DNA of 64,000 bases. Source: Octopus sinensis (lineage: Eukaryota). The DNA lies in assembly GCF_006345805.1 (NCBI RefSeq), contig NC_042997.1, forward strand, positions 24,490,001 to 24,554,000, read 5' to 3'. Shown piece by piece: positions 40,494-43,085 of the stretch (position 1 is the first letter of the stretch; each line of letters begins with the position of its first letter). Both the position numbers and the translations under genes were made by a program. Below the pieces are notes generated by a model. It worked only from the letters and a program-made list of their open reading frames with translations, did not search any database and was not told the DNA's origin.

Positions 40494-41140
40494 TAGGGAT
40501 GAAGTACAAGAAGGTAATTCATAAAATCGAAACAAAATTTTCAATCCCAGAACACGCTAGGTTTATAAAACAAAGGAAAATAATTTTCTAATGCTTGTGA
40601 CATTATCCATTATTTTAACGGTATGTGTATGTGGAGTTTAGCTTCACAAACACATAAGTTCTTGATTAGCTGAATTATTACAACTTACACCACCTGCTTC
40701 GAGTCATTTCATCTAGCTCGCGGTGTTCGGTTTTCAATGTCTCGGAGAAGAAACGATGAATATCAAACACATCATTTCTCTTCTGTAAATCTAAGCTTTG
40801 GTGCATATGTGAGAAATGGTGAATATCAAACATATAATTTCATTTCTTCGGCGAATATAAGTCTTGATGTATATAGAAGAAATGGTTTATCCTCGTTTGA
40901 TCACACATGTTGTGTTAACTATATGATATGTCTTCCTTGCTGACTCACCATATATACTACAATATACATATAACGATACATATAACATAATGAATATTAT
41001 CCTGTTTTTGTTTTCCATCTTTTTCTTTCATATCTGCAGAAAATAAGCGTTCTTGCATAGGATAACACTGGAACTGGCAGAAATTATATTTTGCTTCTTT
41101 TATTCAATTACTTTCATTTTACAGTTCTGTATTTCAAAAA

Positions 41141-41459
41141 GACTCCGCCGGTTACGACGACGAGGGTCCCAGCTGATACGATCAACGGAACAGCTTGCTC
41201 GTGAAATTAACGTGCAAATGGCTGAGCATTCCACAGACACGTGTACCCTTAACGTAGTTCTCGGGAATAATCAGCGTGACACAGAGAGTGACAAGGCTGA
41301 CCCTTTGAAATACAAGTACAACTCATTTTTGCCAGCTGAGTGGACTGGAGAAACGTGAAATAAAGTGTCTTGCTCAAGGACACAACGCGTCGCCGGGAAT
41401 CGAACTCACAACCTTACGATCATGAGCCGAATGCCCTAACCACTAAGCCACGCGCCCTC
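41141..41459 (-). mobile_element. SINE with family-A 3' half but a different head/core
   Basis: The 3' half matches family A; the 5' half reads ...ccttgagcaagacac...ccagtccactcagctggcaaaaatgagt; TSD acagttctgYattt at 41121 / 41460. Confidence 0.85.
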
Positions 41460-41500
41460 ACAGTTCTGCATTTAAGAGATGAGGAATTATCTACATTATT

Positions 41501-41656
41501 TACATTATTTACATTTGACAGATATATGTTCCCATCTTCTTTGTTGTTAAAACAACGTTTCGGCTGATATACCCTCCAGACTTCATCATGTGTCTTGGGG
41601 GAAATTTCTAACCTAGGTTCTCATTCCTAAGGTATTTTTCGATATTATTATTATTA

Positions 41657-41701
<45 letters not shown>

Positions 41702-42129
41702 CATTATTATTATTGTTGTTGTTCAGGTCACTGCTTGGAATCGAACTCGGAATCTTGCGGTTAATAGCCCGCGCTCTTAACCACTACTGGAAAATACAAA
41801 AACGAAAAGAAGCAGCACAAATGTTAGGACACAGCAACCTCTTAAACAGACCGAGTACAGATATGAGTAGCATATGGGAACCGGTAATAAGGAAGGATAG
41901 GGCATATGGCTTAGTGGTTAAGAGCGTGGGCTACTAACCCCAAGATTCCGAGTTTGATTCCTGGCAGTGACCTTAATAATGATAATAATAATAATGATAC
42001 TGAAAAATACATTAGGAATGAGAACCTAGGTTCGAAATTTCCCCAAGATGAAGGGTGAAGTGTATATCAGCCGAAAGTTGTGTTAGCAAACAAGATGAGG
42101 ACAAATATCCGTCAAATGTAAATAATGTA
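41501..42129. mobile_element. Penelope-like element 3' end with inverted pseudo-LTRs (arms 41501-41786 and 41912-42129)
   Basis: The arms are inverted copies. The spacer translates to WKIQKRKEAAQM...LNRPSTDMSSIWEPVI, resembling the C-terminus of PLE GIY-YIG proteins. Each arm has a tRNA-like head, (TAA)n and a hammerhead-like motif. Confidence 0.75.
41551..41593 (-). ncRNA. Minimal hammerhead ribozyme motif (mutated core)
   Basis: Minus strand reads acac-aTGATGA-agtctg-gagggtatat-cagcc-GAAA-cg-TT-gtt; the partner arm has cagccgaaa-g-ttgtgt at about 42068-42083. Confidence 0.55.
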
Positions 42130-42399
42130 CTTTGATGCCAAAAACCGTCACCATTATATATATATATATACGTGCTTTATAAATTCCAGGGTGTTCGATG
42201 GTTTACAAAATCGGTTAGCTCTTCAAAGACGTAGCTATATTGATGGCCCATATAATAAAGGATTATTAGATAATATGTCCCCTTAATAAATTCTATGTAA
42301 GGATAAGAAAAACTACCAGTCATTTTCGCCTCTAAACCTGCTACTCATATAAAACAATGATGAATACATCGAATCTAAACGCAGCTGCAGAATATACAT

Positions 42400-42430
<31 letters not shown>

Positions 42431-42461
42431 CATACACACATAATCATATATATATATACAT

Positions 42462-42493
<32 letters not shown>

Positions 42494-42565
42494 CATACAC
42501 ACATAATTATATATATATATATATATATAATATATATATATAATATATATACATACACACATAAT

Positions 42566-42612
<47 letters not shown>

Positions 42613-43085
42613 ACATAAACACATACATACTCGCACACACACACACGCACGCACACGCACACACACACACACACATACACACACACACAACACACACACA
42701 CACACATAATATATATATATATATATATACAGAACGAGAAATAAGGGTTACGAATAAAAGAATAAAAATGAAAGGCATATATGAAGTAAATAATTCGGTT
42801 TTAAGTAAAGTACGGTTGTTTAATTACGTGGAATGTGCGGAGTGAGATCTAGTTACTAAAATAAGGTCAATTGCTGTTTGAACTTGTCGCCGATTCTCTT
42901 GTAATATTTCATATATTCTTTAAAACATCCGCGATATTCTCAAGGGATCTTAACAACATTCAGTAAATCCTTAAGATTAGAGCTTGTCTCCTAACCTGGT
43001 TGTCATCGTCTGAGATGACTTATCTCATTTTTCCCCTCACACCCTCTGTCTTTCTGTCTCTCTCTCTCTCTCCTTTATGTAACTG

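Follow-up and report, generated by a model that had tools for sequence, protein, structure and literature searches.

The locus analyzed in the window, which is the whole 64,000-nt stretch of Octopus sinensis DNA, contains a Penelope/Poseidon-type element (PLE) with a tRNA-like head, which is inserted in head-to-head form and is dead. The head is a part of an autonomous coding element and not a free SINE. Judging from its sequence and from the ends of its copies, it is probably a captured internal RNA polymerase III (Pol III) promoter that sets the 5' end of the element RNA, the 5' part of which would be copied by the reverse transcriptase (RT).

Structure of the locus in the window

The features of the locus are listed in Table 1. 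The units are numbered on the family consensus, in which the G of the head is +1 and the preceding base is 0. Repeat comparison and alignment confirmed the two inverted arms described in the original prediction; the arms show 81% complementarity over 113 nt and 92% over 60 nt, lie 125 nt apart, and were also aligned end to end. The A box, the B boxes of both arms, and the (TAA)n tracts and hammerhead-like motifs were found where they had been placed. The left arm is present, but it does not start at 41501, as had been assumed, and continues 41 nt farther. Its tRNA-like head also exists, although not as a whole head: it begins at +12 and has lost the A box except for its 3' half. The right arm as a whole corresponds to unit +1 to +241 (41900–42129).

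Both window copies are mutated, in agreement with the prediction, since alignment to the family consensus shows that both hammerheads are broken. In the left one, core C3 is changed to A (41589), with one further change in stem II and one in stem I, while the right one has a 7-nt deletion in which stem I lost its 5' strand and the core its start.

The spacer between the arms had been proposed to encode a peptide similar to the C-terminus of a PLE endonuclease. This homology, set beforehand as a point on which the prediction could be refuted, was detected, as were the consensus hammerhead core and the family-wide head. The peptide shares 14 of 38 residues with the relative P0003 (E = 3e-8 for the pair), and the spacer DNA is 81–87% identical to family copies with the endonuclease region upstream, one of which (L003) includes the RT too. 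The spacer and the left arm meet at a short microhomology (41782–41787). The observation that the head begins at the peptide end holds for the window copy, but it is not a rule of the family: a local 47-nt deletion removed the last codons, the stop codon, a TATA-like motif, and a 10-nt palindrome, and in the family the peptide and the head are separated at this spot by the final codons, the stop codon, and a short 3' UTR. No target-site duplication for the PLE insertion is evident at the locus.

The tip of the left arm carries, 14 nt from its end, a younger tRNA-headed SINE of a different family, flanked by a 14-nt duplication at 41121–41134 and 41460–41473, the latter being the last bases of the left arm. 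The 3' 180 nt of this SINE have seven further occurrences in the window at 88–92%; the SINE gave no match with the loci of a LINE that we take to be RTE-like (see below). The window also contains three degenerate direct repeats about 63–66 nt apart (40749–40886) and a long (TA)n/(CA)n tract (42360–42730), where Rfam microRNA matches were rejected as low-complexity artefacts.

Table 1. Features of the PLE insertion and of the adjoining SINE (window positions)
Feature	Positions	Strand	Basis
Younger tRNA-headed SINE of a different family, in left arm tip	41135..41459	-	14-nt duplication
Left arm, inverted pLTR copy, unit +12 to +282, long tail end	41460..41787	-	consensus alignment
Long 3' end with optional PLE tail, belonging to ORF N-terminal coding region	41460..41500	-	
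Left minimal type I hammerhead, predicted dead	41550..41593	-	core per PMC4209133
Left (TAA)n tract, ~55 nt longer than consensus	41645..41723	-	
Left tRNA-derived head, 5'-truncated; 3' half of A box, B box GTTCGATTCC intact (41737-41746)	41724..41787	-	
PLE ORF 3' end (end of GIY-YIG endonuclease, ~40 codons)	41782..41899	+	
Junction with 47-nt deletion; downstream break exactly at head +1	41899..41900	+	
Right tRNA-derived head; A box TGGCTTAGTGG (41907-41917), B box GTTTGATTCC (41952-41961) with one CpG-type change	41900..41972	+	
Right (TAA)n tract	41973..41996	+	
ATG upstream of the hammerhead; in the family consensus it opens the 838-codon ORF	42018..42020	+	
Right hammerhead remnant, predicted dead	42040..42084	+	
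Right pLTR end, unit +241, short 3' end without tail	42085..42129	+	

The coding element and its terminal repeat

The exact 36-nt hammerhead word occurs 1,703 times in the 2.72-Gb genome, and the exact 33-nt head word 1,313 times. Scaling by the share of arms with the exact word (7/78 for the hammerhead and 7/106 for the head, in sets not chosen by these words) gives an estimate of approximately 19,000–20,000 pLTR arms, with a wide error. The copies have an average divergence of 7–8% from the consensus, and no intact copy of the element was seen among those examined.

The polished consensus unit (coverage of at least 7, excluding a SINE that interrupts the seed copy L055) has a length of 2,664 nt and contains an 838-codon frame, the ATG of which is located at +119, upstream of the hammerhead. 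The unit consists of the head, the (TAA)n tract, the ATG, a minimal hammerhead, the RT-endonuclease ORF, and a short UTR, after which the head appears again. In the relatives P0003 and P0149 (56–57% identity), the same frame is kept through the hammerhead region. L055 (about 1400–4600, minus strand) is a full-length decayed copy with an inverted arm upstream and a direct 5' pLTR, in which the head, (TAA)n, hammerhead, and tail lead directly into the ORF; its 3' head is interrupted by a 230-nt repeat. The hammerhead and tail of L038 likewise run directly into the ORF.

The sample chosen by RT comprised 40 of 150 RT matches, mostly top-ranked, and in 25 of the 26 copies reaching the ORF end this end is followed by the head. 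When loci were chosen by the head, 27 of 30 ran on into pLTR sequence beyond (TAA)n; one of the remaining loci ends 12 nt after the tract, and in the other two, nothing downstream of a long microsatellite matches, but an inverted tail arm is present. No other SINE body was found behind the head in these 30 loci. On both counts the head and the hammerhead co-occur family-wide, as had been supposed. Contigs from three of four other runs (labelled as three further species) also bridge the head and the ORF end.

The RT domain was recognized by Pfam (PF00078, E = 2.5e-9 in L003). The GIY-YIG match in Pfam is weak (E = 0.23, in a relative), and the motif region aligns with those of the relatives. 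The sequences contain PADKG, a CxC between the GIY-YIG half-motifs, and later His residues, with no Cys-rich linker. In PMC8557442, the Penelope/Poseidon clade is defined by DKG, a CCHH motif of which two Cys lie within the GIY-YIG core, and no linker Zn finger. By these motifs, on which the call rests, the element fits the Penelope/Poseidon clade of EN+ PLEs.

An apparent 5' extension, which reached to about 2.2 kb upstream of the RT, proved to be a different common repeat; a very common 430-nt repeat, found in many loci and often present as inverted pairs, mimicked such an extension in L056 (about 4300–5150). A PLE protein with 53% identity (cluster P0006) bears a barnacle as its source name (Amphibalanus amphitrite), and other relatives reach 66–70% identity. 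Since this identity is high for distant animals, horizontal transfer is possible.

The family consensus contains the CUGAUGA and GAAA core expected from the prediction, and its minimal hammerhead is intact in sequence and predicted fold. It also has the extra base before stem II, the G10.1-C11.1 pair, the palindromic 15.2-16.2 positions, and a short stem I; criteria for minimal type I hammerheads of PLEs, including the CUGANGA/GAAA core, are given in PMC4209133. The cleavage site is predicted at +188. The folding of individual copies was not informative (the L018 copy used carries a core deletion), and the Rfam hammerhead models gave no match in the window or in the other copies scanned. The same layout with an extra base before stem II was seen downstream of the ORF in the distant PLEs L072, L081, L088, L096, L125, and L146, which have no tRNA head; in several of them, T-rich UTRs (T5–T7 runs) precede the hammerhead.

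The head has A and B boxes at tRNA spacing in the type 2 pattern, does not form a cloverleaf, and folds no better than shuffled sequences. Since the boxes match the pattern and the cloverleaf does not fold, the boxes have apparently been kept and the structure lost. For standard tools the head is weakly tRNA-like: ARAGORN called no tRNA in it, the Rfam tRNA model gave the window head 22.8 bits (E = 0.13), which does not reach its cut-off of 29, and the same model found no match in any of eight other head copies. Because both programs miss intact heads, the blank Rfam scan of 12 control loci is not evidence. A profile built from 27 tRNA sequences of the same genome, representing only seven amino-acid types, detects the head (E = 9e-6) and matches all 30 head-chosen loci with 10.7–21.3 bits; in 80 other PLE loci (295 kb, many of them fragments) it gave no sense-strand match of at least 10 bits. 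No donor tRNA could be assigned from the 27 sequences, the best of which was Arg(TCT). Between the head of the neighbouring SINE and that of the PLE, 47 of 67 columns match, and the donor may therefore be a relative of this SINE.

Copy ends and the origin of the RNA 5' end

Of the 1,703 hammerhead matches, the ends were determined for the first 90; these 90 belong to one contig (C1) and were chosen regardless of upstream sequence. The features of a pLTR are present in this sample: 87 of the 90 3' ends fall into two clusters about 40 nt apart (45 at +235–257 and 42 at +278–292), and 57 insertions have an inverted arm. Both clusters lie 50–100 nt beyond the predicted cleavage site, which indicates that the integrating templates were uncut, with a length of approximately 240–290 nt, and were not the 180-nt cleaved product. 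The short unit is thus about 240 or 285 nt, and the short transcript of about 180 nt in the original prediction does not agree with the data.

At the other end, 38 of the 46 insertions reaching +10 stop within -17 to +10. The rate of 5' ends at the head is 0.051 per nt versus 0.003–0.006 elsewhere, i.e., about 15 times the background, and eight of the 90 insertions extend farther upstream than the head start. Such a sharp pile-up is what a Pol III start would give.

According to the mechanism proposed here, Pol III would start about 6–12 nt upstream of the head, and the element's RT-endonuclease would bind the RNA just inside the ORF start. The cDNA would begin at one of two internal sites (about +240 and +285), and the RT, running off the RNA 5' end, would generate SINE-like copies of 240–290 nt. 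For the RT of the anole PAc element, cDNA initiation at internal sites and a two-site tail pattern have been described in vitro (PMC11167929). The head-to-head form might result from two cDNAs joined at their 3' ends or from snap-back at the 10-nt palindrome, which spans the head start. For snap-back at this palindrome, the template has to extend 6 nt or more upstream of +1; given the spacing between the Pol III start and the A box, this fits a Pol III leader. In the window copy, one cDNA may have reached +1, jumped to an ORF 3' end, and joined a second cDNA ending at +12; a later deletion fits equally. The hammerhead would stay uncut in the integrating templates, and cutting would sever the head and the ATG from the ORF.

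Among the other explanations, a Pol II start at the same place survives best, although we regard it as unlikely. In this case, transcription would be directed by a TATA-like motif in a partial-tandem copy lying upstream, where this motif overlaps the stop codon of the ORF, and the head would be a relic of a captured SINE in the 5' UTR. A TATAA motif does lie 34 nt upstream of +1, at a distance fitting a start there, and a capped RNA would easily be translated from the ATG at +119, with one upstream frame of only two codons. In characterized PLEs, the promoters used are those of the pLTR, and they have introns in the 5' UTR or TATA/Inr motifs (PMC8557442, PMC3846280), rotifer Penelope pLTRs without a tRNA part begin with palindromes (PMC3846280), and Kojima argues that Pol III processivity limits such promoters to short elements (PMC10886601). 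However, a start set by the TATA motif would match the 5' edge of the head by chance, and the retention of both boxes while the stems decayed argues against a relic. In addition, L055, the one full-length copy seen with a 5' head, has the inverted arm upstream and not a TATA motif.

The distribution of T runs was also considered. The 2,664-nt sense consensus contains no T4 run; for the 2,651-nt first consensus, the probability of this absence was 0.007 with mononucleotide, 0.05 with dinucleotide, and 0.037 with synonymous-codon shuffling. Copies of the family contain 27 T4 runs versus 130 expected (39 segments; ratio 0.21), and other PLEs contain 334 versus 223 expected (62 segments), with nine families ranging from 0.54 to 1.87 of expectation. 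G4 runs are also absent from the sense consensus (0 versus 3.4 expected), and only 1.0 T5 run is expected in it. The RTE-like LINE of the same genome is T4-depleted too (1–2 versus 4.7–5.9 in the consensus; 0.52 in the copies); a Pol II start does not predict the stronger depletion in the PLE (0.21 versus 0.52). This LINE (L243:4600–5800, minus strand, and L311–L340) is abundant, has an RT with a Cys-rich insert and about 90% identity between copies, and its sense consensus has few T runs, with one T5 kept. A distant-protein search for head-less PLE families in the same genome returned the tRNA-headed family in all ten loci fetched (of 58 matches), so these loci provide no same-genome PLE control for T runs. 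The absence of T4 would allow full-length Pol III transcription, although the signal is modest and is weakened by the controls. It is conceivable, if doubtful, that Pol III also reads the whole ORF. The most far-reaching version is somewhat unlikely: an autonomous element with a captured tRNA promoter would be transcribed end to end by Pol III over 2.66 kb purged of T4, its uncapped RNA would be translated, the 5' end of this RNA would give rise to tens of thousands of SINE-like copies, and the hammerhead would be able to cut the promoter and the start codon off.

Three raw RNA runs from one study, labelled as a related species (about 6% of each), contained no pile-up of RNA 5' or 3' ends, and no read ends at the cleavage site in data that are unable to show such ends reliably. 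The mate orientations were equal in these runs, for which library strandedness is not given, and 64–68% of reads continue into unrelated flanks. The RNA signal represents passive transcription of copies and is uninformative on the promoter.

It is improbable that the pile-up of 5' ends is an artefact of reverse transcription, in which the palindrome or an RNA structure at the head causes snap-back or fall-off on a longer RNA. This was assessed on 100 head-bearing arms (the 90-insertion set and the head-chosen loci, with three duplicates dropped), which were classified automatically. Indeed, 24 of the 100 arms join through the palindrome region, the same fold-back occurs in RNA reads and contigs labelled as four other species (loose ends at L056:1802), and palindromes at inverted junctions have been interpreted as self-priming (PMC3846280). 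Of these palindrome-type junctions, 17 of 24 start at the head, as do two of three microsatellite-flanked arms. However, the same start was found in 22 of 31 solo arms (one starts upstream and eight inside; a few carry short hairpins) and in 33 of 42 arms joined to a partner ending elsewhere. Since 55 of these 73 arms start at the head, the palindrome alone is insufficient for the pile-up. If structure caused the stop, it should fall on the 3' side of the head, but the rate there equals the background (0.004 per nt), and the folding of the head, no better than that of shuffles, does not favour such a stop.

Least probable of all is that a non-autonomous SINE or retrozyme exists separately, having source genes of its own and living as a parasite of the PLE: 82 of the 90 hammerhead-chosen insertions lack ORF 3' sequence, short copies have retained both boxes, so that their transcription is conceivable, and non-autonomous pLTR derivatives are known (bioRxiv 10.64898/2026.07.22.740005), but the head is located in the coding element, and a comparison of 105 short with 56 long arms gave no position that distinguishes the two groups once multiple testing is taken into account (lowest p = 0.009). 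Both kinds of copies belong to a single sequence pool, which argues against a separate SINE. Full direct tandems of the short unit were found in one of the 90 insertions (L204), with one partial tandem (L206), unlike in retrozymes. The copies form neither the independent non-coding lineage of a tRNA-derived SINE nor the head-to-tail arrays with a hammerhead per unit that define non-LTR retrozymes; the distinct SINE/retrozyme family of the original prediction was therefore not recovered.

Relation to known retroelements

Hammerheads, tails, and inverted arms of PLEs are already known, as are the combination of a Pol III promoter with a hammerhead and Pol III heads in terminal repeats. Like Penelope/Poseidon PLEs, including the anole PAc, the octopus element has a single ORF with an RT and, at its C-terminus, a GIY-YIG domain (PMC11167929, PMC8557442). 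It shares with PAc and Penelope PLEs the minimal type I pLTR hammerhead with an extra base after A9 (PMC4209133), two 3' ends (optional 30–40-nt tail), and inverted 5'-truncated arms. In PAc the ORF start also overlaps the hammerhead region, so the overlap is already known (PMC11167929). In contrast to these elements, the octopus pLTR opens with a tRNA-derived head and (TAA)n, and the PLE promoters described have the 5' UTR introns or TATA/Inr motifs mentioned above.

The schistosome Sm-alpha and Sj-alpha repeats similarly combine, within one unit, a Pol III promoter with a hammerhead located downstream of it, but they are non-coding and often tandem, and their hammerhead cleaves in vitro (PMC6765202). 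Unlike in these repeats, the head-hammerhead pair of the octopus element is the terminal repeat of a coding element, and the short copies are by-products. The TRIMp3 elements Cassandra, Helenus, and Ajax carry a small-RNA-derived Pol III promoter inside the terminal repeat, probably obtained by SINE capture; they are non-autonomous LTR elements of 0.3–1.3 kb, the autonomous partners of which are expected to use Pol II (PMC10886601), whereas the head described here is on an autonomous element. Animal non-LTR retrozymes are likewise pLTR-derived hammerhead repeats moved by PLE enzymes (bioRxiv 10.64898/2026.07.22.740005; PMC7761336). They differ in being defined as tandem arrays, and no tRNA promoter is mentioned in the available part of their description (bioRxiv 10.64898/2026.07.22.740005), whereas the octopus copies are solo or head-to-head and form no separate lineage. 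Full-text literature searches found no description of a tRNA head on an autonomous PLE; Repbase, Dfam, or supplements may list one.

The prevailing view restricts Pol III promoters to short retroelements that are non-coding (PMC10886601), and the way in which PLE RNAs are started, like the role of the hammerhead, is an open question in the field (PMC7761336, PMC11167929). With its thousands of copies, its recognizable promoter, and the sharpness of its 5' edge, the octopus family makes the question of the polymerase testable, as well as whether an uncapped Pol III RNA can encode a retroelement protein of 838 residues. The family shows, moreover, one way in which SINE-like copies come straight from a coding element.
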